Source of the DNA: Psilocybe cubensis
Lineage: Eukaryota
Direction: 5' to 3'
Length of the DNA stretch: 64,000 nt
NCBI GenBank assembly: GCA_017499595.2
Contig: CM039001.1
Location: 2,418,001-2,482,000 of the forward strand
The position numbers and the translations under genes were made by a program. The notes below the pieces were generated by a model. That model ran no database searches. It saw only the letters and a program-made list of their open reading frames with translations, and was not told the origin of the DNA. Of this stretch, positions 21,093 to 50,973 are shown in pieces (the stretch's first letter is position 1; each line of letters opens with the position of its first letter).

Positions 21093-21145
21093 TGGCCCCT
21101 GTCCTGATAAATACTCGCCAGTCCATCCACTCTCCTCACACCACC

Positions 21146-21850: not shown

Positions 21851-22269
21851 GAATATTAGCTACTACCATACCCCATTTCCTGTCGCCATTACTTCCTTTT
21901 TGTTCATTTTCATACCCTACTAAATTCATACCTTTATGCTAATAGGAGCTCTGTAGACAGGATGCTGTCATGTACATGCATATAATAGTCATATACCAAT
22001 TTTAATTCCCTTTGTACTGTGTGGAGCTTCGATGCACAGCTCGAAATCACCCATCAGCGACATGCGTCAAAAGAAGGCCACTGTGGGAATAAAAAACAAT
22101 ATTTATTAATGGACCATTTTCCTTAGCATATGGTGTTGCCACGCAGCAGAAATACCAAAATATTTGCGGCAAATTATGCCGGTAGTTATTTGTCAAAGTC
22201 GCCCTAAATCATGATGTAATGAACGGGGCAGAAATTGGGTTGACGACATTCGGATAAGAGCGAGCCTAG

Positions 22270-22590
22270 AAGCGCCCCATATTTAGTGGTTCCGGCACGC
22301 ACCATATTCTGGGTAGGGCGGCAAGCCCTATTTTTTGGCGCTTCGGCACGCACCATATTCGCAAGCACCGTATTTCGGCGCTTTGGAGCGCACCATGTTC
22401 GGGGTATGGCGGCATGCCGGATATTTCATGCTTCGGCATGCGCCGCGTTCCCGAGCACCATATTTTGGCGCTTAGGCAAGCACGGTATCGCTGCCACCAT
22501 GTTTTGGTGTTTGGCACACGCCATATTCAGGATATGGCAAGCATCATATTTTAGTGCTTTGGCAAGCACCATATTTCAGTGCTTAGGCTA
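22270..22590 (+). repeat. Left subterminal array of degenerate ~24-bp repeats (GGCA[AC]GCACCATATTT..G[CT]GCTT)
   Basis: Roughly a dozen variants of gcaccatatt, e.g. ggcacgcaccatattc and ggcaagcaccatatttcagtgctt, about 190 bp inside the left TIR. Confidence 0.8.
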
Positions 22591-22888
22591 ACAGCTCTTA
22601 TAAATGTTTTATAAACCATCCTAATATGATGAATTTTAGTACAGCAGATTTTGAAGTGTATCAGACGATAGAGCGAGCAAAGAATTTATTGCAAATAAGC
22701 AGTAGAAGAGTATAAACGCGGGCCAGATACATTAAAAAGGTTTAAAGTAAAGCAAAAGAGGACATGTTAGGGGAATAACCCAATAGCCTCACGGAATATC
22801 CTGTTCAGTAAAAACAACTAATAAGAAAGACTGCCACCGACGTCAGTGCATACAGTAGCGGCGGCGTATTCAGCCCTTTCTTCCTTCT

Positions 22889-23460
22889 TCAAGTGGTATG
22901 CTTCTGACGGACAGACCTACGCAGAGGCTGATCTAAATGTTAGCAAATATTACTGACCATTAAAACATGATTATACCAAGTTCTCCTTTTCGCCCTCGTT
23001 AGGATCCGCAGCCCATCTCTTACGTTTTTTTCCAGCCTTCTCGTCAACCGGTTTTGACAAATTGTCAGCCAAAACACCTCCATTGCGGGCATTTGGGCTG
23101 GTGCTGGGTTCCGTAGAAGGGTTTGCAGGATCAGTTTGAGTTTCATTATTGACCGTTGTTGATGAGTTTTTGTTCGGGGTGTTATTGCTTTTTGAGGGGA
23201 GATTCTCGTCATCCATTGAGATTTCAGTAATAGTAGAAAGCTCGCCATACAAATATGCAGACTGTACAATCATCACAAGTATAAGCAGAAGGAAAAAGCG
23301 GTTATAGTCAAAATTAAGAGCATACATTGAATGCTGGCTTGCAGGGAGTTTTTCGCTGGAGGCGTGGGGGTTTTGATGTAAGCTGATTTTCCGCCTGCGC
23401 CTGCATGGCTTGTAATGAATTACTGCCCCCCGCTGCTCGGAGCGGAGTTTGAGGAATAGG
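22889..23460 (-). CDS. Low-complexity coding exons: either the 3' end of the RTC4-like gene or a separate small cargo gene
   Basis: ORF 22971-23327 (DDENLPSKSNNT...KKRKRWAADPNEGEKENL) is bordered by splice-like sites; a last exon reads PLRRSVRQKHTT*. Confidence 0.4.
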
Positions 23461-23557
23461 GCATGATGGCTGAGGAGTATGGCACCTCGGTTGTACTTGC
23501 TCTATTGGGGCCTAAAAGAAGAAAGAATGTTTAAGCAAAGGGCAATAAATGCAAAGA

Positions 23558-26500
23558 TTAAAAACGATAGAATACTTCAAGATATTGAGGATTTCGCTTT
23601 AGAAGTGCTGAAAAAACTTGATGTAGAAAGTTATCCACGGAATTCATCTCATCATTATCGTCAAGATGACCGTGATACAACTTCCCAAATGATGCACTTT
23701 CCCTCCGAATTTTGTCGGCGTCATCGTAGGCACAGTTCATATCTTCCATAATAAGCAGGTTGACAACGTGGGGGACCATGACCATGTCGAAAAATGATTC
23801 AGCGTTGAACGCACGACTTTTACGCACAGATTCTGATAAATTTGTGAATTCATCCCAAAACCTATATGCATCCTCTGACGAATATGCTGCCAAAGCGTCC
23901 TCTTGTCCAGAGATCTGTTCCACCGGAGATTTGAGTCTGTACAAACCTATGTCAAACGTACTGTCGACGAGCAACTCGGTAACATAGTTTAAATCGCCGT
24001 CTACAACAAGCTGAGTCCAATAGCTTGCAATCAGACTACGCACAATAGGACCATAGCTAGCCAATATTTTAGTTACGTAGATAATATATTGGAAGATGCA
24101 ATGAACGTACTATCCTGCAGATGCCACATTATAACAATACGGCGCTCTCTTGTCTAGTTGATTTAGGAATGATAATTTTGGGGTTTCGCATTTAAGAAGC
24201 ATTAAGCCCACAAATCTTCGCCATGGCAGAGATGTTTCGAATCTTGCACAATCCGTGCCGGAGCCTTCGAATATCATAGGGAAATTGTGCTTTACGTGAA
24301 GCTCAGCGATACGGTTGGCTACCTGGTCATAATCAATCTCGGCCACCGGCCAACCATTGCTGCGTGCAGCATCCAGCGAACTTGTCAGTCTCTCTTTGGA
24401 TCTGAAATAAAGGTGGCTGCAGAGGAGCTGGCTTTTGAAGGACATATTCTGGGCTGCCTTGAGACGGTTGCGATTGTTGGCAAGGCGAAACTGGGCACGC
24501 GCAACGGCATACTCTTTCATTATCATTTTCAAAGAAATATCTATCTCATCTTCAGGCGGGATTGTGTGATGGGGGTCGTCGGATTTAGAACAACCTTGAT
24601 GAGGGCATGATTTGATAGAAAGGTAATCCGAGCCATCCAATACGATCTAGACCGTTAAGAGGGTCAGCATATACCCAATAGAGACGGTCGACACTGAAAC
24701 AATCCTGTACCTCATTCTTCTGGAACGTAGCCTTCGGCTGGGACGTAGCCTTCTCCTGGGACGTAGCCTTTGGCTGGGACGTAGCCTTCGACGTAGCGTT
24801 CTCCTGGGATGTAGCCTTGGCCTGGGATGTCGTGTTCTCCTCAGAAGTAGCGTCTTCGCTGGGCGGAATAGTCTAAAGGTACGGTGATCTTTCAGTCAAA
24901 AAACAGATAGAGTGTGTAGACTTACCGTTGATTGTGATACCTCGTTATTACCGTCATTTTTCTGAGCGCATATCACGAGCACAGGGGTTAGAAATGTAGA
25001 AAGATACCGGCACATTTTCGAATGCAAACCTTTGCTTTCTTTTTGGCTAGTTCCTCAGCCTCAAGACTCGCTGCTTCAGCCGAGCGTTTCTGCAAAATGT
25101 GAAGTTAGATAAAGTAAACAATATGCCATCCAATTAAACAATACATACCATACGCTTAATCTCATGTATAGATTGCAAAGATTTGACTACTTTGCTCTAG
25201 AGTACGTTGAATAAGGCACCTTTTGAGGAAAAAAAAAACAAAAATGATAGCACACCTCTTAGAATGTAGTAAATTGTTAGTAGCAAAAAATTAGCATAAT
25301 AAATAAAAATCATTCGTTACCAACTACGGTACCGTTAAATTTACGCGGCAAAGTAGCTGTGGAAGAGCCAATCTCCTATACAGTAGTCATCAGCGGTGTT
25401 TGTATACTGAAGGCATGTATTTCCTACCTTTGATTTCTGAGAATAAAGATGTACAATAAAATGAAGCGCAGCGGTTGGTAAGATATGAGCCATACCTCTT
25501 TAGACGTACGCTCTTTTGAAGCGTTGGGGTCAGACTGTGTGGAGGCCTTTAGAGGCTCTGGGGCCGGAGCTCGATTCTCTTTTTCAACTTCCTGAAACTC
25601 GGGGTTTAGGCATAAAAATTAAAACATTGGACTTAAAAAAAACACACACATTGTGAGCTTCAGGCTTGGAAGAACCGGGTTTTCGTCCTGCTTTGGACTT
25701 CGCAGTTGGCCAGTGGAACTTGAGAGTGGAAGCTTCTTCTTGCACAGGACTGGGCAAGGCGGTCAAACCAATTGCAGGAAGGGCAGTATTCTTATTCTAG
25801 ATAGCATTCTGTTAAATTTATAACCCACGGCATAATCATGATGCTTGGTACCTGTATTTCAGAGTTAGAACGAAGCGGCTCTTTGCCTGTATTCTGGATT
25901 TTCCCATATAAACATTGAGCAAAGAATGGGAGGCAAAATTATAGAAAATAAAGAGCACCTTGACACCCTTGTTGGCCTTGGCCTTTGCAGTCACTTTTGA
26001 ATTTAAGACTTTGTCCTCTTCATCGGATTGATCGCTCTCGCTCTCAACAAACTTAAGCTTGCGTGCCTTACGCGTTACAGATCCAGGGGTCTTCATAATC
26101 GATCGTGGAGGAGGCTTGGATTTGGGAGTTGATGAAGGGGAGACGTGACGCTCTTTTTGCCGACCGGTCTTTGTGCGAGAATCTTGAGGTTTAGCTGATT
26201 CTGCACTGTTGCTGTTCAGCGCGGGTTTTGATGCCTTTTCCTAAGCACACTCCAAGGTCAATTACACCGGCATGCATTAAATTAACGCCAACTTACACGA
26301 GTAGTATCTTCTTGATGGTGTTCCTTGGACTTGCCTGCCAAATCCTCGTTGTCGGAGCATTCCTTGTCATTGGAGCATCCCTCGTCATCTTTCGCGTTGT
26401 TGAAGACATTATTGAAGTTTTCCTCGTCGTCCGAGCTGCAACTAATATTGTCCATCTCTACTTCAATGGGCCCAGAGTCATTAGCAGCCGTTCCATCGCC

Positions 26501-27404
26501 AGCTTCATCTCTAAGGACCTCAAGACGAGCGCCCTGAATGGTTGCACACGCCTTAATATATTTCTTGATGGCTTCTCGGTCAGGTTTCTCCTGTGAGTTC
26601 TTTTCATCCTCTATATCTTTGGTGGCTGTTGCAGAAAAATGGCTAAGAAACTGTTTCAAAAATTCGTCGATGGGCCAGGCGTGACTATATTTGCGAAAGA
26701 CCTTGGCATTTTTAATAGCCTGTACTCATTTGGGAGTTAGTAGATTATACGTGCTTAAATAGTTTTTGAGTGAATCACATACGCGTTCTTTTGCACATCT
26801 TATCTTGTCTCTTGATTGACGTCTAAACGGTTGGCGAACATCCAGGTACTGGAAGGCAGCTAGCTTGACTATCCGCTGAACACAACGGCATTTTGGTCAT
26901 CATGGGCGCACGTAACATCTGCATAAGAAGCTCACATTGAGACGCAAGTAATGTTCTTTTGTCAATCCCATGGCAAGCTCGAGGTTAAAGCCACCAAAGG
27001 CCTCACCGCGTCCTGCCTGGCCAACGGGACGAGGTATTAGCCTATCATCCTCTTGGTCTTTAGCTACCTTGCGTTAGAACATTTAATCCGTCATTTTAAA
27101 ATCAACACGCACATAATTGATATTTCAGGTCTTTTACAACCTTGTCTTTCTCTGCTAACTCTTTTTCTTTCTGAGCCAATTGCTTAATCAGCTCTTCTCT
27201 TGAAAGTAGGTGGGGTTCCGAGGAATTTTCAGCCCCGGAGGGGTTTGCTTTCGAAGAGTTTTCAGGCCCGGTGGAAGGGTTGGGGTTTGCTTTCGAGGAG
27301 TTGTCAGGCCTCGCGGCGGAAGGGTCGGGGTTTGCTTTTAGGGGTTTTGCAGGCCTGGCGGCCCTGGACGGGTTTTGATATGCTTTCGATGATTTCGGCG
27401 GCAT
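23558..27404 (-). CDS. Transposon-cargo protein with a C-terminal RTC4-like domain and an N-terminal small helical domain (many exons)
   Basis: Spliced SAGY|YGPIVRSLI and FFDMVMVPHVVNLLIMEDMNCAYDDADKIRRESASFG match the RTC4-like pattern GYYG...VLVP....LI.ED......A..I..ES..YG. N-terminal exons read IPRPVGQAGRGEAFGGFNLELAMGL...YLDVRQPFRRQ...WPIDEFLKQFL. Joining these into one gene is inferred. Confidence 0.6.
24722..24860 (-). repeat. Coding minisatellite of ~18-bp units encoding (E/P)KATSQ repeats
   Basis: Repeated gggacgtagcctt on the + strand, read as AAGGCTACGTCCC (KATS) on the - strand. Confidence 0.75.
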
Positions 27405-27663
27405 GGAAGCTAGGAGGCGAAAGTAGTCGCTGTGTACTGTTCAGTTGAAGTTTCAGAGGTATATAACGAAGCGTTGGCGGAAAAACTCGGATGCATTGCC
27501 CAGCTAAAAGATAATATACGCTAGTCCTTATTTGGTAGCGTTATACGCGGGGGCGCGATGTTTGGGGTATACGCTCACGTGAGGTTGTTCTAAGCGTATA
27601 CCGGGCGGTTTGCGTCGATTTCAACTTCCAAGTCCCAAAAGCCCAAGTCCTGACAAATACAGC

Positions 27664-28249: not shown

Positions 28250-28321
28250 TACAATAAAGCTTTGGAGCAGAAATAATATACCTACATGCGTTTATGCTAC
28301 AAATATTATTCCCCGGCTGCT

Positions 28322-31300
28322 TCAAATTTGAATATCTGCTAAATTGTCAGAAGCACTCAGGTTAGAAAGCAGTGTGGTCATACCAGAAAGAGGTAAAGTC
28401 AGCTGGGAAGTAGCCCAGTTGTTGATGGTCACCAGCCGTTGTCGATCTTGTGAATGACTAGTCTTGCAAAGATGATGTTTAGACAGATAGGTCTTAGACC
28501 ACGCTTTGATATGCTCCTGCTTGATAACAACATTCTTGCTGCGACAAAGAACATGTTGATTGATGTGAAGGCCGGCTTCCCATGCGCAATCCAAAATGAG
28601 AACTTCTTCTCCCAGATAATCTATCAACTCGCGAATGAACCAAGCAGTCCATCGGCAGTCAACAGGCGGAAAGTTAAACCAGTGCTCAAGGATGGTCGAA
28701 CAAAATTGCAGAACGCAGGTCTTCGAAACGGTGTTATACTTAAAAGATCGAGGAGCGTAGACGTAAACAGATTCTCTTGGTTGAAACCCGCTGATAAAGG
28801 AAGCGGCGTCGAACTCTGCATTTGTTTGTACAGCCAAAACTTCTTCAACCCGTCGAACCAGTACACCCAAGCCATTTGAGATGTCGTCCTTGCTACGATA
28901 GGCTTGCTCGAGGACGCTGTCCAACCACTCCCATAATAGAACGTTGGAAAGGAGAAGCTGCTTTTGTTGGAATTGGAGATCAAGTTTCGAAATTGTCTTC
29001 TTCTGGCTGTATGAAGCGTATAATTCGCAGGCTCTACGAATGTCACCTGAAATCACAGGCTGACTGAGAATTTCAGATATCAAAGACACGTCAAGCCACT
29101 TTGACTGCCCTTGAGAGGGAGTGTTATCGATTGGGAGGCGTTTTAAAGCAGCCAAAATTTTTGATATGCATTCTGGCCTCAAAGCATTCAAAAATTTGCT
29201 TGTTCCTATACAAAAAAAGCGGTCAGAAACCTTGAATTCAGGCTGAAACAGCGGAAAAATTGAACCAACCTAGGGATGTTACCGAACTGCTATGCCGGGT
29301 AATTCGTTCTTTAGGAGCAGCATTTTTCTTGGAAGCTTATAGTTTTGTTTGCACAGCGGACATTTAGTAAGGTTTGAACTGACGAACCTTTCGATTTTGT
29401 GACCGTAGAATCTCTGTCTCCATATAGATTGTCTTCGAAGTTCAGATTGATATCTGGCCCGGAGTCGCTTTCGGGATCCTTGCGATGGCTCATTCGGCGA
29501 GCCTTGCTTGAGGTCAAGGTTTCTAAATTTTTGCTTGTAGATATTTGAACTCGACGGAGACAATAATATTTTACATACGTTGTGATGTATTTCTACGCTT
29601 TTTGATATGTAAATCCATTTCAGAAACATCCCTAGTCCGTGCCCGTTTAACCGCTCCTGTGCATGTGTCAGTTATCAGGACGATGAAAGCATAATAAAAG
29701 TAAGCAACTAACCCTTGCGCGAACCTGTTTTGCTCTGTAATCCAATCACGGCTTCTTCGTCGTGGTCTCCAGCGGTTACACACAAAGGAATAGACTTTGC
29801 TGAGCTTTCCATGTGTTTTTTCCATTCTTGTACAGCCTCTTGGAGTTCAACGTTACCGTACGGTGCTTCGGACATAGAATCCGAGTTACAAAGCCTTGCA
29901 AGATCCTCTGACGAAAGATCCTCGATGGATGAAACGCCTAATCCACTAAGGATGCCTGAGTAGTCGGTACCGATTTTGACATCATCGCCTCTCCATCCGG
30001 GACCCAGATCCCACTCATCCGCCGTAACTCTCTTATTATCGATAACCACAGAAACCATTTTCATGGCTAACGATTTATCAACGCGTGGAATCAATTCCGG
30101 AGGCAACTGACGGGCAAAATGCGTGATTGCTTGGAGAAGAAGTCGACTGAAGTGATTGATATGAGCCTTAGGAGAAAGTAAAGAACCTCCGTCCGCAGTC
30201 CATGTAGCTTGCTTGCACATTGGCGTCTTCGATAATTTGTGCGACCTAAATTTCATTTAAGATGCTGGGCATGATGTAACGTTTATGCTGACAGACGTAC
30301 ACTGGATTTCGCATTTCAATACCGATGGCAAAAGTTGTATCATTAACTCCAGCCGCAAAAGCGACGCTATCAACCCCGTCAATTAGTTGACCAGGAGGGT
30401 AACCGATGAGAGTTAGGCGATAGTAGATTTCGTTGGGTTGTTGGACGTAAATGGGTTGATGACCTCCATGGAAATGGAGACCAGAGAAAAATATGACGGA
30501 AAACTCCTCCATGAGATACGCCAATCCGCAGCATAAAATGTAAAAATTTTCAGGCGCCACGTCGGCCCTGTAGCGACTGAGAACGTGCATACAAGTTGGA
30601 GCACCTGAACTGTCGGCAGCGTCAACATGTGCCATCCCAAATTTTCCGAGCGAGGATTCCAAGGCAACATCTAAGCCAAAAATGAAGTTCAGATTGTATA
30701 ATAGTTATGCGGGACACACCATGCTGTGGAACTCCAGGAGCTACATTCAGTTGCCAAGACGGCCAGACGCAATTATCATCATATCCTACTGGCGCTAGCG
30801 AGGCCACCTCGGCTTGACGCTTCAGGCGCTGGAACAAATGCTTGGATGCTTTCTTAACTCCTTCAATACCAGCTTTTGCCCCAGCCTGAGAATGCAATCA
30901 ATTGACGTGTAAAACGTTCAGCGAACGACGTACTTGAAGTATATTGAACCGCATTTGCAGATCATAATCCCTGGCCTGAGTATACACTTTGCTCTGAACT
31001 CCTGGAGCGCTGAGGGATTTCTGTGCCTGTAGGGTTGATCCAAGGGTGTAGCATCGAGGACCGGACTTGATATTAACTGCGCGATCGCTTCGTTCAAACT
31101 GAATACCCCCCGAGTACTCTCCGTTTGTGTCCTTAACGGGTTTCTGCGAAGACATAAGTTCTTGAGGCCCCAAGATTTCTTCCTGAAGTCTGCGGCATTC
31201 TTGAAGGTCTATTGGATCTCGCTCATGTCTGACGGTTGTTTAATCACAAAATCAAATGCAAAAAAAAAGATCCTTACTTGCTCAGTGTCCAGGATTTAAG

Positions 31301-31979
31301 TACATCGTCTCCAGGAAGCCCCGAACCGTATCTATCGCGTTCTAAATAAAAAATGTTGTCGCTTGGTTTTATGTATAGCATTCCTGAAAAATAGAAAAAC
31401 TGTCAATGCCAGCGGGTGAATTACAGAAAGGGATCAATCGCCTTGCATCTGTCCTTCTGCTGCAGTGCTCGGTACCTTCAAATTAGCGGAGTAATGAAAT
31501 CTACGCCTCATCGCGTCCATTGACCAATCTGCAATGCCCAGGATGATCCGGGCGTTGGGGTCGTCGACTTTAGGATGTGATTTAAGTTCATATAAAACCG
31601 GAAGCTGAGGGTCGCGTCCGACAAGTTCCGTCATAAGGCGAGAATCAGCAGGAGGGTCAATTTCAATGCGGTTGTCGTGAGAAGGAGGAGCGACATCCGA
31701 TTGTTCAATAGTCGCATCGGTCTGAGGTGTTAGACGTCCCGTCGTAGAAATGGATTCAGAGGGAGGATGTGGCGGAATGCGGTTGTCAGAAGCCCGAAAT
31801 GTAGGGTTCGATTGCCCCAAAGTTGCTGCTGTACGAGGCATCCGGCGTTTAGAACCCTGGGTCGGGGAGGGCGTCGACGCTGCTACCTTGCGACGCAATA
31901 CCGGCCGGAGCGACTTGGGTGGAGGAGCGGCCGGCGCTGACGCGACTGTACGACTTTTACTTCTGGTCTCTGCGGGCAT
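28322..31979 (-). CDS. Large 2-oxoglutarate/Fe(II) dioxygenase, TET/JBP-like (multi-exon)
   Basis: Double-stranded beta-helix signature: SWQLNVA, HxD in FGMAHVDAADSSGAPTCM, distal His in IFFSGLHFHGG, 2OG-binding Arg in YRLTLIGYP; preceded by FERSDRA...PRCYTLG. This arrangement is typical of transposon-linked fungal TET/JBP proteins. Confidence 0.72.
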
Positions 31980-33023
31980 CGGAAATTGGGGGATGGAAGG
32001 GAAAGAGAGCGGAAGAACGAATGACAACCAATTAGTCTGGGCAGCTGAGCATAACAATAACGGGCACGTACCGGGACTCGGCGAGAAATTGAAATACAGA
32101 ATGTCAATTCCACCCGCACCTCATGCAAACGGTCTCCAATCCGCCTCCATTTTTCAGGCACGTACCTATGGCCCGTTTCTTTCCACTTTTGTTTCAAACT
32201 TTTGTCTCAAATTTGTCTGACCTCCAAGTACAATTAATACGCTTTATAAAAGTAAGGACGCCCCAAGAAAGCGCCATTTTGTCCATAGTAAGGGCAAGTA
32301 GGTGCCTGTAACCCTGGAAATCATTCCGCCGCCCCACCGTCGATTACTTAGGCTGTGACGTCTACGGTAACCAGCCCTACGTACGTATGGAACTAATGCG
32401 TGTGTAGATATTCCTACGCGCCTACTCGGTCATCCGAATACATACAGATGGCTAAGATGGGTAAATAATGTACGATAATCTTTGTATATACGCCGTCGAT
32501 CAAATTCAATTCGAGTTTGAGACCGCGCTGACCTGCCGCCGCGCGAGTAAAGCAGGAGTACAATCTATTTATCGGGCTGGCTAAGATCACGTCTGGGTAC
32601 TGATATGCAAATGACGACATACCGGGACCAATCCGCCATGCTGGCTCTTCGATGTCGTCATACGTTATTGAGCGGGCACTGCTGCTGCGAGGCGCAGACC
32701 AGCATACCCCCTACAACTGTAGGGTAGGAGGATCAATGCATATCCCTTATTCTGAATTTAGAAGATAAAGGCGCGATCGACTTGTGCGCGCGCCCAATTA
32801 ATTTGTCGCGAGTCGCTGCCTGTGCGTACTTACCAGTTATTATAATCGAGCGTTGTCAATACGGTATACACTAGTTACAAAGACGCAACAGATTTTCTAA
32901 TTCTGCCTAGGTATCTCTACTAACTAGACGGTACGGTTTTCCTCCTCCCGTATTGGGCATGTTGGCGGAAGAGAGAAGAAGGAAACCGTGAGAAAGTGTT
33001 GAATTGCCCAACTTGACGCACGG

Positions 33024-33067
33024 GATTTCGAAATCCATGCCGAGTGTTCGGCATGGATTTCGAAATC
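33024..33067. repeat. Perfect hairpin (20-bp arms, 4-nt loop), copy 1
   Basis: gatttcgaaatccatgccga-gtgt-tcggcatggatttcgaaatc. Confidence 0.95.
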
Positions 33068-33287
33068 GCCGGGTACTTATTCCCGATACTGGCAAAAGAC
33101 AACTCTTTTCCGATCCTCTACCACTCAAAGGCGTACGCTGCCGTAGCGCGCGCGGGGGGCATAACGATGTCGATCGTAGATTAGGTATATATAATAGCTT
33201 AGATCGTACACATTTTATATACATGAAGTCGTAGTAACATGATATTCCTTCCCAGAAAACATCGACGCGCATCGATTCGTCTCGATC

Positions 33288-37564: not shown

Positions 37565-38080
37565 ATGGATGTGGCTCAACATTGCGACCAAACTCGCGTC
37601 GATGTCCCAACACCTGAGTCAAACACCTTTCCCGTCCTCTCAAATCGTAATGATTCCCACTTCCAATATCAGTTACTCAATCTGGCAATGACCTGCGATA
37701 CGGTTTTTGGTCTTACCAGGGCGGCAAATGCGCTCCACAACCTCTTGTTGGAGAACTCTGGGATTCTCGAAGAACGTATTATAACTTGCAGTCGATCCAT
37801 GGTCGAAGAAGCGGCTGAATTCGCGGATAACGACGTTGTGAGGGCCTCTTCTCGCTGTGTGTTGGGCGTGAAACGCACGTTCTGACCACCCTTTCATTCA
37901 GTTTGAACTTGCCACTATCCTTGCTGCTATCCCCTCGGTCAACTTTCATTTGAATATGGATCTAATTCAAGATGCAGCACGTGCCGTCTATGTCGCAGCT
38001 GGTCTACGCCGAGACCTAGATGTTCGTTGAATTCCTATTCCTCTGATTCAAATTAACCATAAGCTAACGTCACGGGTCTA
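37565..38080 (+). CDS. Uncharacterised small cargo protein, probably 2 exons, convergent with the transposase
   Basis: 106-aa ORF from ATG 37565 and a probable second exon (FELATILAAIPSVNFHLNMDLIQDAARAVYVAAGLRRDLDV...). Confidence 0.4.
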
Positions 38081-38149
38081 GGAAGCGTTGAAAATATGCA
38101 GCTTGGCCTTGACAAAAAAAGAGTGAATTGTTTATGCAAAGCTTATTTA

Positions 38150-41100: not shown

Positions 41101-41879
41101 CCCGTTGTAGAGTTTGAAATTGTGTCGAGGAAATCATCTCTATGGAGAAAATTGTCTGAACTAACAGGGCTCTCAAGGCCATTGTCGCTTCTAGCGGGTG
41201 TTTCCTCGTTCAATCGTTGGATTGGAATGTGAGGGCTTGTATCTTTGGCCTCATCCTCATCCTCATCCATTTGATGAAGTAAACCATCACTATAGTGCGA
41301 ATTTTCCAGGCTGACAGGGGTATCAAGGCCGTCATCCCTTCTTGGAGGAATATCCACATCCAATCGCAGGATTGAAGGCTGAGGGCTGGTATTATTTTGG
41401 GGTTCATCCTCATCCATTCGATGAAGGTCGCAGTTAACACGAAATTTACCTTCCGGAAGACGGCGCTGCTCATCCTCATCCATCTCACTAAGCTCTTCAT
41501 TAACATTATATTCAGCTTGGGATATATCTGAACGGCCCCCAGCGCCCGACGAATCTTGTTCTATTAATAGGTCTGAGTCGTTATCACCTCGATATCTGTG
41601 AAGTACTATAGATCAACGGTCCAAGTTTAATGCGATTTTGATAAATACAACATACTGTGGACTATGATTTGAACGATTTATAGCGTCGGTAGAATAATCA
41701 GTTTCCTCCTCAGTGTCGGGGGGTGGTGTCCTTCCAACCATCCTGTAATGTTTAGCCCGAGTTTGACGCGAAATGGGCTTTCCCATACTACGGCAGTTGA
41801 GTGCGCAACCACAAAGCACCTTTCCAGTTCTTTTGCGGCGGCGAGTCTGACGACGCTTGCGATGGGTAGTGCGACGCAT
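38150..41879 (-). CDS. CACTA/En-Spm (Transposase_21, TnpD-like) DDE transposase, apparently intact, with introns
   Basis: N-terminal CxCxxxC...H, DCCINSCKAYTG..C.YCREPR, YIPLSPQLQALF, IALSLCMDGF, GPNAPKNLTSFLYP, GDIVA, GHNGLCPCRSC, DYMHLLFLN, LHGMLHL, GPVWATWTFWMERFCG; 729-aa uninterrupted core ORF. Confidence 0.92.
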
Positions 41880-42118
41880 CGATAACTAACTTTACATACG
41901 AGTATATATGAATTAAATTGAAAACACGATACACCATGCGTGAAAGCGACGTACTTGTGTACGAATTCAGTACGGAATGTTCTTATCAAATTTCTCGATC
42001 CTATCTATATACTGGTGCTGTGTACTACTGAAGTTTACTAATTGTCGTTCGTTTCATTATAGTGTTAGAAGGGAAAGGAAGAAACCCTTCAACCACGTGC
42101 AAAGCAGGAGTAAGTACG

Positions 42119-42169
42119 CCGCTATTTCGAAATCCATGCCGAGCATCGGCATGGATTTCGAAATAGCGG
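42119..42169. repeat. Perfect hairpin (24-bp arms, 3-nt loop), copy 2
   Basis: ccgctatttcgaaatccatgccga-gca-tcggcatggatttcgaaatagcgg; the core is identical to the hairpin at 33024. Confidence 0.95.
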
Positions 42170-43286
42170 TGTATAAGTTTACGGCTGCGAAACCGTGGCA
42201 CGTTTTAGCAACTTACTCCTTCCCATTCTGGTACAGACGCAACAGTACAGCAGAAATCACCTGGAAGCTCGTCACTTGCAGGATAGACATAGTATGGTAA
42301 GTAATTCGTGTCTCCAAAGTATTCGCCTCTTACCATTTCTCGGCGCAAGCTTCTTGGATACCAGGCGGAGGAGGGGCAGTTATGGGCGTAGATGTGCTTT
42401 TTGTCGACAACAGCACTTGCGGAACAGTGACACAATCAGCAGTGGGAGGGGCGGAAGATGCGGGGCTTGCTCATCTTAAATTCCTGAACGACATCCAGCT
42501 GATAGAGACAACTCACCACCGTCAGCACCTCCCTTGGACAATGGGTCAGCCGCAAATGACTCATCTAGTATAGCTAGTATTCTATGATATAGACAGAGAA
42601 AAGATGGCTGCGGCATTATCATAGTTATCCAAATAGTCAGGTATATTGTAACTACACAATCAAATTATCTTGTAAGCTGCTTGTCTCATTCTTTAGAACA
42701 AGCCTCGTCTGCACCCACGGACTCTCGCCTCCATCCCAATATATAGGCCGGACTGCTTGTTGAATCTTGCCCATCCTGCTCCCTGACGACGAGCGGCACA
42801 TTGCTGCCTATCTTTGTCAGTTATAGGCTTGTAAATTGCGGTATTGAGTCAACATCCTGAACGACCGTTATGGCTCACTCACTGAAGGGCCCAGTCTTAC
42901 GCAGAGGTCAGTCGTACTCCCTCTGCTTTCTAACTCTTTACTAACCTTCGTATAAGAATGTAAACCTACCACGACGCTTTTCTTTGCTGCATGCGGCATC
43001 TATCGCTGGTGTGCGGTCGGCTTAAAGTACTAAGACTGCGGTGGATCTGGATGTGATGAGTGCAGGCGGGATATGGCAACGTGCCCCCATCTCATAGGGT
43101 AAGCCGCCCGCGCCGCATATACCAGCGCACATAGTGATGCTTGCTGAGCCAGATTCCGGGGTTGGGACAGGGTGGAGAAGAAGGTATGGGTGGGGAGGTG
43201 GGCAGGATGCAAGGGATGGCGGTGCCTTATCTTCTCGCGTTAGGGATGTTTGGGAGGGTGTACGTGCTTTTTCTGTCATATACCCA

Positions 43287-43860
43287 ACGGCGTCTCGTAA
43301 ATCTCCTCTAAGAGACCGTTTGCTTTCAAATTCTCCAGATCCCATCAAATCGTCTATCTTGCGCGAATCAGGAATGGGGTGGAATACACCAACATTGAAT
43401 GGCTCTATTCAACCTTCCGGGAGTACAGGTCTATAACCTCTCCACTTCGCATTGCCAAACAAGATTCTCCCAGTGGTCGTGTTCGAGGTCCTGCCGTGGC
43501 TCGCAGAACCTCGTCTAGCTACCGATATGTTCATAACAACAACCTTGTGTCCAATTCTCCATTCAAGTCACTGATACCAACGCCATTGACCCCATCTACA
43601 CGGCCGCCTCCTATTTCATTTCCGACGAGGAAATATCTGGTGAAAAACACCCACGCCCCTCATCGATGCACGAACTAGGAAGCAAAGCAAAACATTCCAG
43701 GGTCTTATCGACAAAGAACCAGTTACCAAGAGTCCATTTCGTATTCAACAGAAACAGCCTGTTTCCCAGCCCCCGAAGCCTCCCCTCGCTCCCATTCAAA
43801 ACGAACAATCAACTTTATTTTCAACCCCACCCGCGCCGTCACATATTTCACCCCCGGTCT
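43287..43860 (+). pseudogene. Degenerate 5' fragment of a host gene, possibly the Bud4/anillin-like N-terminus
   Basis: ASRKSPLRD...SSILRESGMGW, PLRIAKQDSP, RRTSSSYRYVHNNNLVSNSPFKS, SGEK.PRPSSMHE, RKQSKTFQGLIDKEPVTKSPF, split across frames. The family call is from memory only. Confidence 0.4.
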
Positions 43861-43889
43861 CTACACCCAATAATGGTCCATCTCCTGGT

Positions 43890-45595
43890 CGCATGGTTCG
43901 TCGTCGAATGCGACTAGCCCTGTGCTTTCGACTAGTACGTTGCAGACTACGCCTTCGCCTCCGCCGCTTAGCGATGAGGGCTTGGGATCAGGGTCAGGGT
44001 CTGGGGCGGGGTTGGTTAGTAGGAAGGAGATGGAAGGATAGCACACCCAGCAGCATACCCAGCACACCCAGCAACAGCAGCGCACTAGTACTCAACGCAC
44101 AGGGACTGGTGCCCGTACTAGCACTGGCACTGGCAATGGTGTCCAGCGCACCAACGCAGAAGGACCACGGCTTATCCCTGTCGACCCAGTCCGCGCCACC
44201 CCGCACCTCCTTGCAAAAATCCCGTATGTGCCCGTGACGATTGCGCATTTGCCGCAGGATAGTTTGGAGGCGCTTAGATCTGTACGTCTTGGCTGTTAAT
44301 TGTTTGTTTGTTTTCTTGAGCACTTTCTGATGATGGATTGGTTGGTTGGTTTTTGGTCTTTTTAGGCATGGCGCGAGGCATGTGCGCCGCTTTATCATTG
44401 TTGTCGTAGTGTGTGTGAGCGTGCGAAGGTGGTTGAGATGAGTGCACGCCCTGCTGCTGCTGCTATGGGTTCGTAGCAGGGTGTTGTACCGCGGGTCGCA
44501 TCAGGCGGTGTACCCGACGCCGAATGTTCCGCCGCTGCAGCATGCGGGCGATGAGATTGTGTTAAAGGAGGATGAGGACGATGGCGTCGATGGCGTCGAG
44601 TTGGATACAGATATGGAGATGGAGATGGGGATGGGGAGGGTGAGGAGGAGGTTGATTATGATGTTTTGGATTATGAGGATGAGGATGAGGAGCAGGAGGA
44701 GCAGGAGGAGCAGGATGAAGAGGAGGAGGAGGAAAGGGAAGAAGTGCAGGAGGAGGAGGAGGAGGAGGAGGAGTACGACCCCGACCATGACCATGGCCAT
44801 GCGGCGGAGAGGTATCGGTACTCTGGCTCTGTCTCTGTCTCTGTTTCTTCGAGTGTAGCTGTACCCGCTATATACTACTACCACCACCACCGCTACTACC
44901 ACAACTACCACCACCACAACCACCGCCACCACAACTACAACCACCGCTGCTGATATCCACACTCCGACGTATAGATCGGTCCCTGCCCCAACCCCGCTCT
45001 TCGCACAGCGCCCATTGCGCAAGAGGTCATCTGATGAGCTTAATGATGATGGAGATGGAGAGGGTGATGCGGGGTACGATACGGCGAGTAGAAGTAGCGA
45101 GACGCTTTCGTCTTCGTGGGTGTCTAGTGCTGGAGCCGGTGCGGGGGATAATGGGCGAGAGAATCAAGGGGATAATAGAGGGGTGTTTGACCTGTTGATG
45201 TTGCTGTGGGTGTGGGTGTAAATGTGGTGGCGCCGGAGCTTGTGATGAGGCCGAGGAAACGGAGTAGTGAGGAGTTGGATGATGAGCATGAACGTGAACG
45301 CGGGCGTGAGCGTGGGAGTGAAGAGAGGGTACCGTGTCGGGGAACATACCATAACGACAACCACAACCACAACGACACATATAGCCTCCACAACCACCAA
45401 CGTATCCGGGTGCACGCGCCGCTTTCGCCGTCGTCTGAGAGCCCGCGCAGTAGAAGGCGGAGCGGGAGTGTGTATTATTCATCGTCTGCCGATGCGGAGG
45501 AAGGTGATCGGGATGTGGTGTTTTCTGAGGTGGGCGATGGCGATGTTGATGTTGATGTGCATGTGGATGGGGATGGGGACGATATCTCAGGGGAC
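43890..45595 (+). pseudogene. Degenerate fragment of an uncharacterised host gene with acidic/low-complexity tracts; one intron retained (about 44282-44365)
   Basis: IPYVPVTIAHLPQDSLEALRS|AWREACAPLYHCCRSVCERA across a GT-AG intron, then poly-Glu, two RKRSS(D/E)EL motifs, in-frame stops and frameshifts. Confidence 0.5.
44660..44950. repeat. GAG- and CAC/ACC-rich trinucleotide low-complexity tracts
   Basis: gaggaggaggagg... (about 44676-44775) and ccaccaccacc/actaccac... (about 44875-44945). Confidence 0.8.
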
Positions 45596-45902
45596 GAATT
45601 TCTCGATGTTGCCTCGGAGTGGCTGGACGACGCTAAGAAGGCGATTCTGAAAGGGAAGAAAAACCTTGACAAGTGGTTCCATGATGGAAGAGAATTCATA
45701 AAGCGAGATAATTTGCTCTGTAAGTCATTGTCAGATTCCTCATAATGCGATACATACTGATCGTGTTGTTCTTTTCTCTTAGACGAATATATTACGCATC
45801 CTGAATTCCAGAAATATGATTTGAGGGTGACGGAACCCAAGCTTTGTGACCCAACCGTCAAGCAATTGTCAGGGTATCTCGACATTGCTGAAGACAAGCA
45901 TG
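45596..45902 (+). pseudogene. Captured fragment of a serine carboxypeptidase (S10, carboxypeptidase Y-like) propeptide/N-terminus with intron (about 45720-45782)
   Basis: ASEWLDDAKKAILKGKKNLDKWFHDGREFIKRDNLL|YEYITHPEFQKYDLRVTEPKLCDPTVKQLSGYLDIAEDKH, followed by an abrupt break and a stop. Confidence 0.8.
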
Positions 45903-46096
45903 GAGAGTGAGGAGATGCCGTATGTCCCTCCGCCGCTGCCGGCGCATTTACGTCGCCAGCGGCAGGGCCAGCAGTTTCAGCCAAGGAGCACGATTGGGAG
46001 TAGGTATAAGACTGCGATGATACCTACGCCGACGGCGAGGACGAGGACGACAGCGGCAACGAGGACGGCAACGAGGACGAGGACGGCAACCAGAAG

Positions 46097-46843
<747 letters not shown>

Positions 46844-46961
46844 GGTGTGGTGCGTGTGCGAGACGACGGGATTGTGTGGGCGAGGTGGGATGTGCTCAAC
46901 GATCGGTATAACTATTTTATTTTATTTTTCTTTCTTCCTCGCTAATGCTTTTTTAAATCTT

Positions 46962-49254
46962 TAGACGGGTCCTCGTAGTCGCCTATCCGTCGGCCCTGCA
47001 GATATGGGATACGTATGATCTGAAAGCTATTAGGGAGGTCGTACGGCTGCGATTCGATGCTTCTGCTCCTTCTGGCACGCAGACGCAGTGGAGTGCGCTT
47101 TTCGCTCTTGGTAGGGAACCGATGGGTACAGTAAAGGGCCAGGTTGCCGGTCATGGTGTCGGTGGTAGGATAGGGTCGGGAAGAGACGGTTTTACGATCC
47201 GCGTTGCACATGCGGTTATCCTTCCTGCTACCAGCCGGCGAGCGAAGGCTGCGACGCGCGACAAGGACGTGTTTGAGGATGAGAGGCCATTGCTTGGTGT
47301 GTTACTTGAAGCGGAGGCGGCGGAAGAGGATGGTAATGCGGGAGTTGAGTCTGTGACGGAAGTGGTATTTGTGGTGTATTCGCTTCGGACACATCGGGTG
47401 GTGAAGCATGTACCGCTCTCTGGGGTTCCTGATTTTGGGAGTCGTGCGGGTACTTTTGATGTTAGCAAGGATTTCGTAGTCCTTGTAAGTTACTACTTCT
47501 CCTTTATTCTCTTTGAGTTTGTTGATTTTCTTTGCTTTGTCTAGAGCACGAAGAGCCCACCAACACTACATATTCTTTCGTCCGCGACATTCCGGAGGCT
47601 TCACACTATCCACTCAACGTCCCTGGAAGCGTTCACAAGGCCCCCGCGCTTACCTCCTCCTACCCCACATGGCTCAGAAATGAATGTGGATGTAGCAGGT
47701 ATCAACACCGCCACAGGAGGACCTCCCAGCGTGCATGCAGACGCAGCAACCGGAAAGTCCAGAACAGGCGCCTTTTCATCGGGCCTCTCATTGTCCATTG
47801 CCTCGAACGCGCTGTATGCTCCTGGGAGCCGCAGTAGCACGCCTGCTTCTGTCAATCCTAGTGGAAATGCTGAGCAAGCTGATGGATCAGCCTCTGTGCC
47901 AGTAGTGTACCCCTCTCCCGTGTTTGCCCTGTCTGGAAGACTCCTGGCGTATGCATCGCCCGTCCCTGGGCGCAGCACGGGGGCTAGTGGAGGAGATGCC
48001 GGCTCTATGTCTCCAGGGGGTGTTGGTGGCGTCGGCTCGTCCCCTTCTCCGTCATCCTTCCTCGGTGTCGGTACCGGTATCACTTCAGGTATTAGCAAAG
48101 CCTCTCGCAGGCTCTCGTCATCGTCATCAGCGTCTGTACACTCGAACGCACCGTCCAGCGCGTCATCGTCGTCCGCGCCCTTCGGGTTAAGCGCTATAAG
48201 TGGGATTGGGGCAAGTATCCCGCGCACACAGGCGGAGGTGGGGCATGCTGCGCTGAGGGTCGGAGAGAGCGTGGTGAGTGGTATGCGGTTTTTGGGTGGT
48301 ATGGCGGTGGATGCTGCGCGTAGCCGGGTGGGCGCTGGCGTGGGAGGTGGTGTGCCAGTCAGGCAGGGTACACCTGTTGGTGCAGGGCGGGCGGGCGGAA
48401 GTGTTAGTGGAGGAGGGAATGGGAGGTACATCTCGAGAAGTGCACCGGATAATGCGGAGGATGTGGATGATTCTGCGGCTGCGCAAGCTTTGCGTGAGCG
48501 CAGGTACTCCGCCAACGCGCCAGCCGCTGTTGGAAGTGTTCCGTCGTTCTCGTCGTATGTCAGTTCGCATGCCGTCGCACCACATACGACGGGCGTGGTT
48601 GAACATGGGCATTATGTGACGGTGCTGGATTTAGCACCGCTCCTGGACTCCAACTCTAGCGGGGTAGATGGATCTGGACTCGATCTGGAGAGCACTGTGA
48701 AGAACATACACGACGTCGACGTTGTCTATAATGACGAACTTGTCGACGACATGCGCCCAATCCGGACCCCTATGAAGATCGATGAATTCAATGCGTCGCG
48801 CAGCCAGCCCGTTGCAGGTCTCTGCTTCGCGCAAGATGGGACAAGCGTGGGCGTGATCACGCGCGACGGGCACCGTGTCAAAGTATTCAGGCTCCGCCCC
48901 GTGCCGTCCGTCGTGCGTCTAGGAGAAAGGAACACATCGTCAGAATTGGTGGAGGAAACTGGTTTGCAGGAGACACCACATGGCCCGCGTGCTGCGCAGG
49001 TGTATGACTTGTATCGCGGACGCACGTCTGCTGTGGTGGAGGGTGTGTATTGGGCGAAAGACGGCAGGTGGGTTGCGGTTGGTACTCGAAATAGGACTGT
49101 TCATGTGTTCGCGACGAACCCCTACGGCGGAGAGACTGATTTACGAAGCCACATGGAGGGGAGGGTTAGAAATGTGGATGTGATTGTGAGTTTTGTTCTT
49201 TCCTTTATACCGTGCAGGCAGTATTTTTCAGCCTTGACTATGAGCGACTCGTAG
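46962..49254 (+). pseudogene. Captured internal fragment of a BCAS3-like WD40/PROPPIN-related gene
   Basis: VYSLRTHRVVK, STKSPPTLHILSS, PVFALSGRLLAYASP, LCFAQDGTSV...GHRVKVFRLRP, YDLYRGRTSAVVEGVYWAKDGRWVAVGTRNRTVHVFATNPYGG; no recognisable true start or C-terminal exons. Confidence 0.65.
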
Positions 49255-49688
49255 CCGCTCGTCATGCTTCTCGATCCGCCCTACACTACAGTACCGCCAT
49301 CCATCAAATAACGAGAAGTTTTCGGGATGTGACGAGTGTTGAGTGAGTGAGGAATGACGTTTAGTCCAGCTTATTTCAGGTCCTACAGCAGGTCATGCTA
49401 GGACATTTAATCACAATGACATATTTATCAAGAAAAAATATCGTAGAATAGTACAAATGGCTGGTAAGATAAACTACACAGGAATTTATTTACAAGAATA
49501 CGAAAGCAGAAAGCAATACGAGAGCATGAAGGAAGAATAGGATACTACCATGTCCAAACAAGAAATACAAGAAATGAATGAGGTACGGTATTACGTCGAA
49601 AGAGAAACTCGTTCTTCATTAGCGACGCGTGCACAAAGGACGGTACAATGTGCTGAGGCTGCGTTGTTGGGACAGGCTAAGTAATGAA

Positions 49689-49842
49689 GGGCCCTATGTG
49701 TTGTATGGGTCCACGGGATAAGTGTTGGGGAGTAATGGACGCGAATGGGCGCGGTAGTTTCGTCGCAAACGGGCCTTACGCGTCGTATGGGTCCACGGGA
49801 TAAGTGGTGGGGAGTAGTGAGCGCGAATGGGCGCGGCGGTTT
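49689..49842. repeat. Two-copy tandem duplication with a period of about 82 bp
   Basis: gggccctatgtgttgtatgggtccacgggataagtg... (49689) versus gggccttacgcgtcgtatgggtccacgggataagtg... (49771). Confidence 0.85.
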
Positions 49843-50224
49843 TGTCGAAAACGTGGGACCGAGCTAGTGGGTGATTGTCTGTCGCTGTGGTCCTCAACGT
49901 GCACCGACGACTCTGTAGAGGAGTTAGCAACTTGATTTTGTTAGAGAATATCAAAGCAGACGCACCGTCTACATGTGAACCCGTCTCGACGTTCCTTCTC
50001 AATCTCCTATCCCTCAACCGCTCGTACAAATTTTCTCTGATCTTCTCCGGTAGAATTTTCTGGCATCGGTTGTAGAGCCAGTCGCGGGCTTTCTCGATAG
50101 GGGCCATAATGTCGCCGAGGAACGTTAGGACGATGCACAATATCCCGCCAATGAAGATTGGGACTACCATCAGGAGGTTGAAGTAGTGCGTCGCTTTGTC
50201 CACAGGGATGTGCAAATCGGGCAT
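49694..50224 (-). CDS. Small single-TM cargo protein of unknown function
   Basis: MPDLHIPVDKATHYFNLLMVVPIFIGGILCIVLTFLGDIMAP... has a hydrophobic stretch followed by a basic region; 3' exon structure uncertain. Confidence 0.45.
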   Translation of the reverse strand: MPDLHIPVDKATHYFNLLMVVPIFIGGILCIVLTFLGDIMAPIEKARDWLYNRCQKILPEKIRENLYERLRDRRLRRNVETGSHVDGASALIFSNKIKLLTPLQSRRCTLRTTATDNHPLARSHVFDKTAAPIRAHYSPPLIPWTHTTRKARLRRNYRAHSRPLLPNTYPVDPYNT

Positions 50225-50535
50225 GATCAGTTGAGTGAGAAAATTAGGATGATAAGAGCGGTTGAAGGAGTTGGTTTGAGGGAGGTTGTGAGGGAGGTGG
50301 AGGTTTGGAGAAGAGATCTGTATGTGGATGCTGTGCAGGTGAGCAGGGTTTTGTAGGGCTCTTACCAAACGTTGACAAACGAATCGGTTCTCGCGCTCAC
50401 CCAGCGACTTCGAGCTCTCGAAGGCCATGTACTAGAGCACATCTCTTTCGTTTACTCTACCTGTCTGAAGCGTCATCTTACGGTTTTTCTTAGCGCCCAT
50501 TTTTGTTACTTACATATGTAAAATTACCTGTATCA

Positions 50536-50600
50536 CGCGCACCTAAATTTGCTGATTTGAAGCGCACCTAAATATGTAGTATCGAAAGCGCACTAAATAT
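50536..50600 (-). repeat. Right subterminal repeats (3 copies), inverted relative to the left array
   Basis: gcgcacctaaat, aagcgcacctaaatatg and aagcgcactaaatata; the reverse complement catatttaggtgcgctt resembles the left-end units catattttagtgcttt and catattttggcgctt. Confidence 0.65.
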
Positions 50601-50973
50601 AGCTATCTAGCTAACAGTGTATCCAATACTCCACTAAGTACCGTTTAGTTTCCGAGAAAATCTGATGTATTGCTACAGTACTAATAATAATTTTTTCATT
50701 CACACCAAAATATCTTCTTTTCGTCATATCAGCTATTCTTACTGGTTCCAAAACGCCAAGCGATCATGTTTCAACTTTCAGCATGGGGAAAGATGATTAG
50801 ATCAATGATTATCATTGTGAAATTTGTCATTGTAATTTTCAACAGCATGTTTTAGTGTACAAACGGAGTAATTGCCGTTCCCTCAGTATATTTTGATGTT
50901 CCGGAGTCCCACAGTGAGGCATCAAATTAGCCTTCATAGTCTCCGTTTTAGGCAAGGTCTAAATGAGCAGTAA

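Follow-up and report, generated by a model that had tools for sequence, protein, structure and literature searches.

A probable 28.8-kb CACTA-type transposon in Psilocybe cubensis with RTC4-like, TET/JBP-like and Spt5-like genes

Introduction

It is now appreciated that fungal EnSpm, Plavaka, Kyakuja and other transposons carry TET genes, and escape from silencing through TET-like enzymes has been proposed for such TET-bearing transposons; among them, Kyakuja is described as making 7-bp duplications and having no inverted repeats (Kojima, 2025; PMC12730594, main text). Here, we describe a stretch of 64,000 nucleotides of the mushroom Psilocybe cubensis (GenBank assembly GCA_017499595.2, contig CM039001.1, positions 2,418,001 to 2,482,000; hereafter the window), in which positions 22079-50916 very probably constitute a real, single and unusually large transposon of the CACTA type (CACTA/EnSpm, CMC or 'Tnp2' superfamily). 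The element is 28,838 bp long and holds a transposase gene, a gene with an RTC4-like domain, a TET/JBP-like dioxygenase gene, a paralogue of the gene for the transcription elongation factor Spt5 and truncated copies of host genes.

The capture of host gene fragments by transposons is well documented in plants, and the giant cargo-bearing elements of fungi are generally attributed to Starships. The KDZ (Kyakuja-Dileera-Zisupton) transposons were reportedly linked to TET/JBP genes by Iyer et al. in 2014. Expansions of the RTC4 gene family have been reported in rusts, without a link to transposons in the available text of that report (PMC9370660). Our searches of the literature on Psilocybe CACTA elements and on transposable elements of Psilocybe cubensis found nothing relevant. 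A first-pass annotation of the window, made from its letters alone, had proposed a CMC/CACTA-superfamily DDE transposon with the ends given above, and the transposase, the termini and the breakpoints described below uphold that proposal.

Termini, target-site duplication and related elements

The termini, and the AGGC that the first pass had placed outside each of them, can be read directly from the sequence. The left target-site duplication (TSD) AGGC at 22075-22078 is followed by the left terminal inverted repeat (TIR) CACTGTGGGA at 22079-22088 (+ strand), which agrees with the motif of 80 related loci; the right TIR at 50907-50916 (- strand; TCCCACAGTG on the + strand), supported also by contigs of two public sequencing runs (X5 and X6) and by the reads of a third (X12), is followed by the right TSD AGGC at 50917-50920. 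The inverted repeat is exact over 10 bp only, and the ends diverge further in. The left-end 12-mer CACTGTGGGAAT is one base off the family consensus CACTGTGGGAAG, and the right-end 12-mer CACTGTGGGACT likewise fits the terminal signature of the family. With the right end taken as given, the 14-mer made up of AGGC and CACTGTGGGA is found once in the window (chance expectation by our own arithmetic, about 2e-4 per 50 kb). The terminal 10-mer with at most one mismatch occurs three times against 3.4 expected. The duplication reads as 4 bp (AGGC), or as 3 bp (AGG) if the left end is set at 22078; 4 bp falls inside the 2-5 bp of the wider clade, and the canonical EnSpm duplication is 3 bp. The element apparently generated a 4-bp, less likely a 3-bp, duplication in the spacer between two tandem paralogues.

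Taken on its own, such a combination of TIR and TSD is at chance level, which counts against the reading of a defined element. A 10-bp inverted repeat combined with a 4-bp direct repeat, 2-40 kb apart, is found in 13 configurations in the window; the average over 30 Markov shuffles was 7.3, and no shuffle exceeded 12. It is the outside evidence that makes both ends significant, namely the breakpoints between strains at 50916|50917 and the same terminal motif in related elements. These two lines of evidence, together with the heterogeneous flanks of the reads, contradict the idea that the inverted and direct repeats are a coincidental match without defined mobile boundaries, and we consider that idea hardly credible.

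The related elements were retrieved with an alignment of the transposase and 30 homologues (A3), which recovered 80 fungal metagenome contigs at 36-51% identity. In these 80 loci, CACTGTGGGAAG with at most two substitutions occurs 75 times against 33.5 in shuffles, and 30 of the matches have at most one substitution, where about two would be expected by our own arithmetic. Eight complete elements bounded by the motif enclose the transposase (L008, L016, L022, L023, L046, L057, L061 and L065) and are 4.7-10.4 kb long; their target duplications are of 4 bp in four of the seven that are evaluable, of 3 bp in two and absent in one. The ends and duplications of these relatives therefore support both ends in the window, the 4-bp duplication and a single element of three to six times the relatives' size. 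Further, a scan of 22-51 kb for the motif revealed no convincing additional terminus between the two ends, and a self-BLASTN of the window found five small internal repeats only, the ends being without a second copy.

The inverted subterminal repeat arrays noticed in the first pass are also present, the left one clear and the right one small. The left array (22270-22590, +), delineated by repeat finding and a motif scan, consists of GCACCATATT / ATATTTnAGTGC units, and GCACCATATT occurs four times at 22299-22576, with periods of 25 and 90 in Tandem Repeats Finder. Toward the right end, three GCGCACCTAAAT-like units lie at about 50536-50600. The motif ATATTTAGKTGC, with at most two mismatches, has 11 matches in the whole 64 kb, of which a cluster of four at 22279-22582 is on the + strand and one of three at 50539-50713 on the - strand, an inverted arrangement.

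Copies of the element and differences between strains

Evidence for mobility comes from public sequencing runs. Eleven runs shared between 0.09 and 0.98 of the words of a 6-kb probe laid across the left junction, nine of the 11 at least half, and two more runs were added to the probe set by species label. Four runs (X5, X6, X9 and X12) were aligned to positions 32500-52499, a stretch that begins to the right of the left junction and of the 22-32.5 kb portion. In X5, a contig of 52,161 bp aligns solely to 50917-52499 (contig positions 20030-21619) and continues leftward for 20,029 further letters that match nothing in 32500-50916. A contig of 3,498 bp in X6 also aligns solely from 50917 (contig positions 950-2532), and its 949 further letters leftward again match nothing in that stretch. 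The raw reads of X12 show 66 loose ends at 50916, and the consensus of their continuation reaches an agreement of only 0.68; they therefore run into several different flanks. In each of the four aligned runs, the right terminal region (49850-50906), the last ~1 kb of the element, is covered 2-4 times as deeply as the flank; it includes the subterminal motifs at 50536-50713 and part of an open reading frame (ORF) at 49697-50431 (-). An 82-bp tandem repeat in two copies lies just inside this right arm (49689-49853).

The contig breaks, loose ends and depth together establish the right end as the base-exact boundary of a multi-copy sequence, and the site as unjoined to the element in two strains. 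Hence, the element is present in several copies, and its insertion site is not occupied in all strains.

Transposase and RTC4-like gene

The apparently intact Transposase_21 gene of the first pass holds up under closer analysis. The ORF at 39297-41612 (-) matches the Pfam family Transposase_21 (PF02992) with an E-value of 3.6e-9 and 36.6 bits against a cut-off of 28.6, and DUF4218 follows downstream; by these Pfam matches, the conserved residues and the introns, a Tnp2/TnpD-type DDE transposase (Transposase_21 plus DUF4218) is encoded at 38171-41822 (-). Its 125 relatives, the best of them 53% identical, all come from Agaricomycetes where a source is named. The protein keeps 58 of the 60 columns of at least 93% conservation, and residues D433, D524, C543xxC546, H638 and E771 are in place. 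C543-x2-C546 is conserved at 97-99%, and the conserved histidines are H638, H735 and H585, the last of these being our own mapping of the nearly invariant H330 of A3. In-frame stops were considered as disabling and rejected, as they lie inside GT..AG introns of 60 and 51 nt.

The second gene, at 22974-27440 (-), ends in an RTC4-like domain (23561-24109; Pfam RTC4, E 9.3e-11). It is probably one long gene, whose extent upstream of 24.9 kb we infer; the ORF at 26285-26725 has a weak match to ORFs lying just 5' of the RTC4 ORF in four related loci (L013, L016, L023 and L032). An 18-bp coding repeat of the ATSQ type occupies 24720-24851 in its upstream part. Comparison of the RTC4 profile with the PDB gave no matches.

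The first pass had counted this gene as chromatin-related cargo, a view that its recurrence does not sustain. RTC4-like ORFs adjoin the transposase in 8 of the 80 related loci, and all seven that were tested exceed the Pfam cut-off; four of the eight complete relatives have such an ORF inside their terminal repeats. This recurrence beside the transposase marks the RTC4-like gene as the second core gene of the family. Of the 13 loci whose sequence extends at least 4 kb downstream of the transposase, 4 have the ORF there, on the same strand; of the 28 that extend at least 3 kb upstream, 4 have it there on the opposite strand, one of these, L032, with a weak match (E 0.009). The two arrangements, downstream on the same strand and upstream divergent, are seen in L008, L013, L016, L023, L026, L044 and L046, which suggests two subfamilies of a two-gene element.

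TET/JBP-like dioxygenase gene

Between the RTC4-like gene and the Spt5 paralogue lies a TET/JBP-like dioxygenase gene (28325-31650, -), recognised from homologues, a motif and a fold model. A tblastn comparison resolves the stretch into one gene of ~1200 aa. Its ORF at 30249-30704 contains the HVD..H..R triad for iron and 2-oxoglutarate (HVD...GLHFHGG...YRLTLI), and residues H346, D348, H399 and R419 are nearly invariant among 42 aligned sequences. With this ORF, 240 relatives were found, the top ones being 'hypothetical proteins' of 1000-1400 aa from Agaricales.

The TET/JBP-like reading of the first pass holds at the level of the fold. An AlphaFold model of the homologue P0122 (predicted local distance difference test, pLDDT, 77.9; predicted template modelling score, pTM, 0.76) was compared with the PDB by Foldseek, and CMD1 (7e-6), NgTET1 (8e-6), TET2 (3e-5) and CcTet (1e-4) led the matches. 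These have E-values of 7e-6 to 2e-4 and a probability of 1.00, and they come ahead of FTO. The only lead to Tet_JBP for this family came from Atlas. An in-frame stop was weighed as a disabling change and dismissed, since it falls inside a GT..AG intron of 48 nt; wherever homologues cover the gene, no in-frame stop was found outside introns. At least five paralogues of the TET-like protein are present in Pluteus cervinus (P0128, P0134, P0135, P0136 and P0138), four of them on scaffolds of 12-36 kb, a pattern typical of repeated elements.

Spt5 paralogue

A paralogue of Spt5 in four exons, comprising an acidic N-terminus, an NGN domain and KOW1-3, is located at 33344-35932 (+), as assigned by a profile comparison with the PDB. 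The profile (A4), made from four such proteins and the exons of the window, matches solved Spt5 structures with an E-value of 3e-42 over residues 275-688 (NGN and KOW1-3), so that the Spt5-like reading of the first pass is valid at profile level, and it also matches Arabidopsis RDM3/KTF1 (E 7e-25). The Pfam domain Spt5-NGN reaches 25.7 bits against a cut-off of 22.4 in P0271, an intact and 99% identical copy from Psilocybe cubensis, and 38 bits in the homologue of locus L079; the window exon alone scores 19.7, below the cut-off. Word-based searches for wider relatives gave only four proteins, all from P. cubensis, in which these paralogues occur on at least two contigs. In X12, the depth over the gene is two to three times that of the flank.

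The window copy itself has a premature TGA at 34123-34125, where all four aligned runs read CGA and P0271 has Arg; it is therefore truncated, by a CpG-to-TpG change. Among the sequences compared, this nonsense codon is seen only in the window copy, and the database gene models P0272 and P0273 appear to splice around it.

Paralogues that are 25-29% identical adjoin Tnp2 transposases in two related loci, L018, where the two genes are convergent as in the window, and L079. In L018, the inverted-repeat pair 78/3999 was rejected as an element end, as the Spt5-like coding alignment runs through position 3999. The ORFs between the Spt5 paralogue and the transposase (36287-37882, +) have no Pfam match and no match in the related loci. 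The same palindrome of ~60 bp is present at 33024-33083 and 42107-42173, with arms of 20-28 nt that are 96-100% complementary; the pair flanks the block with the Spt5 paralogue and the transposase, and the contigs of other runs break there. Either a small foldback insertion or a hairpin with a regulatory role might account for it.

Captured host fragments and the unity of the element

The region at 43.9-49.8 kb has a raised GC content, of 0.50-0.57. It begins with a GC-rich, low-complexity block of single-copy depth (43893-46097), delimited by its composition and by loose ends at 43892 and 46098. The block is followed by a truncated copy of a host phosphatase gene of the PPP family (PP2A-like; 46098-46841, +; Pfam Metallophos, E 2.6e-11) and, directly abutting it, a truncated copy of a host BCAS3-like WD40 gene (46842-49213, +; Pfam BCAS3_WD40, E 1.6e-11). 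The host fragments that the first pass had suspected are thus confirmed, as the PP2A-like and BCAS3-like originals are found on other contigs in other strains. In X5 and X6, the phosphatase stretch lies inside contigs of 18.9 kb and 10.7 kb that match nothing else in the aligned region; the phosphatase and BCAS3 stretches are on separate larger contigs, at 96-98% identity (BCAS3 ~96%) and with a depth equal to that of the flank. Both stretches are therefore host gene copies that have been fused within the element. In the low-complexity block, X9, X12 and X6 show alternative joints at 45130-45902, with skips of 73-368 bp and filler letters, so this block varies between copies or strains.

It might be asked whether these host-like sequences were ever part of a transposon. 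The locus could instead be a composite, in which two separate insertions of related elements, one complete at ~22.08-43.9 kb and one a right-end fragment at ~49.85-50.92 kb, bracket host DNA, and the 28.8 kb never moved as a whole. The composition of the middle part, its host-like genes and its single-copy depth in X12, X5 and X6 are in keeping with such a locus, as is the divergence of other copies at 43892 and 46098. However, AGGC flanks both outer ends, a second pair of termini is not present between them, and the host pieces are truncated copies joined to one another at 46840/46841, while their originals reside on separate contigs elsewhere. A composite is accordingly improbable in our judgement, and a single element remains the preferred reading.

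Several further observations weigh against that reading, or against the parts that make it up. No contig or read bridging the left and right flanks, and hence no complete empty site, was seen in the public runs, which leaves the precise length of the duplication provisional; under the preferred reading, the empty site would read AAAAGA-AGGC-ATCAAATT, with AGGC once. The copies and strain differences that speak for mobility concern the right end only. In X12, depth is uneven, at ~1x over 43.9-49.8 kb and 2-4x over 32.5-43.9 kb; about half of its reads diverge at 43892 (51 loose ends, depth falling from ~97 to ~46), and at 46098 about as many reads are clipped as the depth there. From this, we infer that other copies lack the phosphatase and BCAS3 pieces. 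Breaks in other copies are seen at 42.5, 43.9 and 46.1 kb; the block at 43.9-49.8 kb may have been acquired late, and the 28.8-kb form may be unique, with part of it gained after insertion. As for the genes, the transposase alignment shows no evident H(3-4)H motif of the kind cited for CMC transposases. The catalytic-core ORF of the TET-like gene is ~50% identical to P0122, and the fold was seen on that homologue and not on the window protein. No Pfam Tet_JBP (PF12851) match was obtained with the window ORFs or with any of eight homologues, which have no Pfam domain at all, and the family gave no sequence-level match in the PDB (phmmer; low-complexity matches only with a profile). The TET-like gene was found in none of the 80 related loci, only three of which have 10 kb of downstream sequence (a positive control matched seven window ORFs), and the Spt5 paralogue in only two of the 80, never inside a complete TIR-bounded relative.

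The earlier proposal that everything between the ends moved as one unit therefore stands in part: it is favoured by the 4-bp repeat that matches at both ends and by the lack of termini in between, while the missing complete empty site and the copies that lack 43.9-49.8 kb speak against it.

Insertion site and flanking genes

As the first pass had noted, the ends fall between members of a tandem gene family. The flanking paralogues (21050-21373, 51106-51273 and 52565-52714) are 44-55% identical. The family, at 21050-21900, 51067-51700 and 52340-52740, consists of small Lys/Glu-rich genes with the motif KKIEKE..EEK..KDL..EK..KAHK and without a Pfam match. Ordinary host genes, for GH3, beta-galactosidase and superoxide dismutase, are present in the wider flanks. 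A frame of 977 aa at 55566-58496 (+), rich in Ser, Pro and Glu and with a coiled-coil middle, has no Pfam match and looks like an ordinary low-complexity host protein.

Proposed life cycle

A possible course of events can be outlined as follows. The Tnp2-type DDE transposase would bind the terminal and subterminal repeats, excise the element and reinsert it, perhaps assisted by the RTC4-like protein as a TnpA-like accessory factor, a role that we assign with low confidence. Compared with the two-gene relatives of 4.7-10.4 kb, the lineage would have gained a TET/JBP-fold dioxygenase and a divergent Spt5 paralogue. The TET-like enzyme is predicted to oxidise 5-methylcytosine in the DNA of the element, which would counter silencing by methylation. 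The Spt5 paralogue is predicted to dock on RNA polymerase II by way of its NGN domain, and might favour transcription of a long element or interfere with host Spt5 or with silencing. Gap-repair 'transduplication' is the probable route by which the element acquired the ~6 kb of truncated copies of host genes. To judge from the sequence, the transposase and the TET-like gene of the window copy look intact, and its Spt5 paralogue has a nonsense codon.

These cargo functions are plausible as proposals, and they touch on the self-encoded anti-silencing toolkit that the first pass had imagined. That toolkit is a hypothesis, and the Spt5-like gene of the window copy has a premature stop. Tentatively, the lineage might encode an anti-silencing module of its own, in which an Spt5 paralogue acting on RNA polymerase II would either sustain transcription of the element or supplant the elongation machinery that the host couples to silencing, and an HxD clade of the TET/JBP fold would erase cytosine methylation; taken jointly, these claims are possible and hardly the likelier outcome.

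It could also be that the TET-like and Spt5-like genes are passive passengers, like the PP2A and BCAS3 fragments, with no role in the life cycle of the element. Their rarity in the related loci fits this, as do the stop codon in the window and the demonstrated ability of the element to capture host DNA. Yet both genes are full-length, multi-exon and strongly diverged from the canonical versions, the Spt5 paralogue scoring near or below the Pfam cut-offs and the TET-like family going unrecognised by Pfam. The catalytic residues H, D, H and R have been retained; the Spt5 region stands at two to three times flank depth, with intact copies in existence (P0271); and the Spt5 paralogues of two unrelated contigs, 25-29% identical, sit beside Tnp2 transposases that are 36-46% identical. 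Moreover, 11 transposon lineages have recruited TET genes (PMC12730594, main text). We hold mere passage for unlikely, though well short of negligible.

Whether the window copy is itself a dead relic, with real ends but able neither to move nor to supply functions, is a related matter. The nonsense codon, a right arm burdened with 6 kb of foreign DNA and an inverted repeat of only 10 bp all suit a relic. Against this, the reading frames of the transposase and the TET-like gene look intact, and there is no signature of decay: CpG observed/expected is ~1.0 in the element and 0.9 in the flanks, with neither CpG depletion nor the marks of repeat-induced point mutation in the element or the flanks. 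That ratio is compatible with a young or unmethylated element, and proves nothing. The site also differs among runs of the same species label, X5 being without the junction and X3, X4 and X9 holding 0.84-0.96 of the words that span it on the left, which points to recent movement. We regard a relic as less likely than not.

Comparison with known systems and perspectives

The first pass had singled out the locus as an undescribed system, an overstatement, since fungal EnSpm, Plavaka and Kyakuja elements that encode TET have already been described (PMC12730594, main text). The window element shares with the TET-encoding EnSpm and Plavaka elements of that paper a DDE transposase of the CMC(T) clade, CAC..GTG termini, a short duplication, an internal TET/JBP-type dioxygenase gene and a host among the Agaricales. 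It differs in the enzyme, which in the published Agaricales EnSpm and Plavaka elements is of the 'PE-type' with HxE (PMC12730594, section 3.4), whereas that of the window is HxD, ~1200 aa long and without a Pfam match. The EnSpm duplication is 3 bp in the same source and apparently 4 bp here. Plavaka (A or B) has termini TGT..ACA or CATCA..TGATG and duplications of 2-3 bp (PMC12730594, main text), unlike the CACTG..CAGTG of the present element, which by its ends does not belong with Plavaka. Spt5, KOW and RTC4 do not occur in the main text of PMC12730594, the element lengths and gene lists of which are in its supplements.

The resemblance to maize En/Spm and other plant CACTA elements, described in part in the available text of PMC1636069, extends to a Transposase_21 (TnpD-like) protein with DUF4218, a second encoded protein, subterminal arrays, CAC termini and the carriage of host fragments. 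Unlike those, the window element ends in CACTG and not CACTA, has an RTC4-like second gene and not TnpA, adds TET-like and Spt5-like genes and resides in a fungus. With the KDZ transposons, it shares the idea that DNA transposons of basidiomycetes spread TET/JBP genes, but its transposase is a Transposase_21. Starships, as generally understood, are likewise tens of kb long, with cargo genes and presence or absence between strains; their enzyme is a tyrosine recombinase, in contrast to the DDE transposase found here, and they lack inverted repeats of this sort. A Pfam scan of 43 stop-to-stop ORFs of the element gave no match to a recombinase, such as the tyrosine-recombinase 'captain' (DUF3435) that Starships have at one end.

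Four features appear to be new: the Spt5 paralogue inside a transposon, the Pfam-invisible HxD-type clade of TET-like proteins, the RTC4-like core gene, and the 28.8-kb size with copied-in host fragments. On these claims, the supplements of PMC12730594 and Iyer et al. 2014 may bear, and our literature search found no transposon-borne Spt5 in fungi. Given these features, the published picture of TET-carrying fungal DNA transposons would extend to a further, Pfam-invisible clade of dioxygenases, and a DDE cut-and-paste element in a mushroom can reach ~29 kb and copy in fragments of host genes. Expansions of 'RTC4' gene families in fungi, including those of rusts (PMC9370660, available text), may be transposon copies. 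As the host is a cultivable fungus, methylation maps, RNA-seq and standard biochemistry should make it possible to test these claims.

Finally, the closest parallels to the Spt5 paralogue are plant SPT5L/KTF1 (RDM3; PDB 8hyj) and Spt5m of Paramecium (available text of PMC8934623), which are likewise diverged NGN-KOW paralogues for transposon-related transcription or silencing. The window paralogue resembles canonical Spt5 (E 3e-42) more closely than it does RDM3 (E 7e-25). Those are host genes that act against or around transposons, whereas the paralogue in the window is encoded inside one, and it would represent a second kind of chromatin and transcription cargo, drawn from a gene class so far known only as a host silencing factor of plants and ciliates. 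If this is true, it would be the first transposon-encoded Spt5, a mirror on the side of the parasite to the SPT5L/KTF1 of the plant host.

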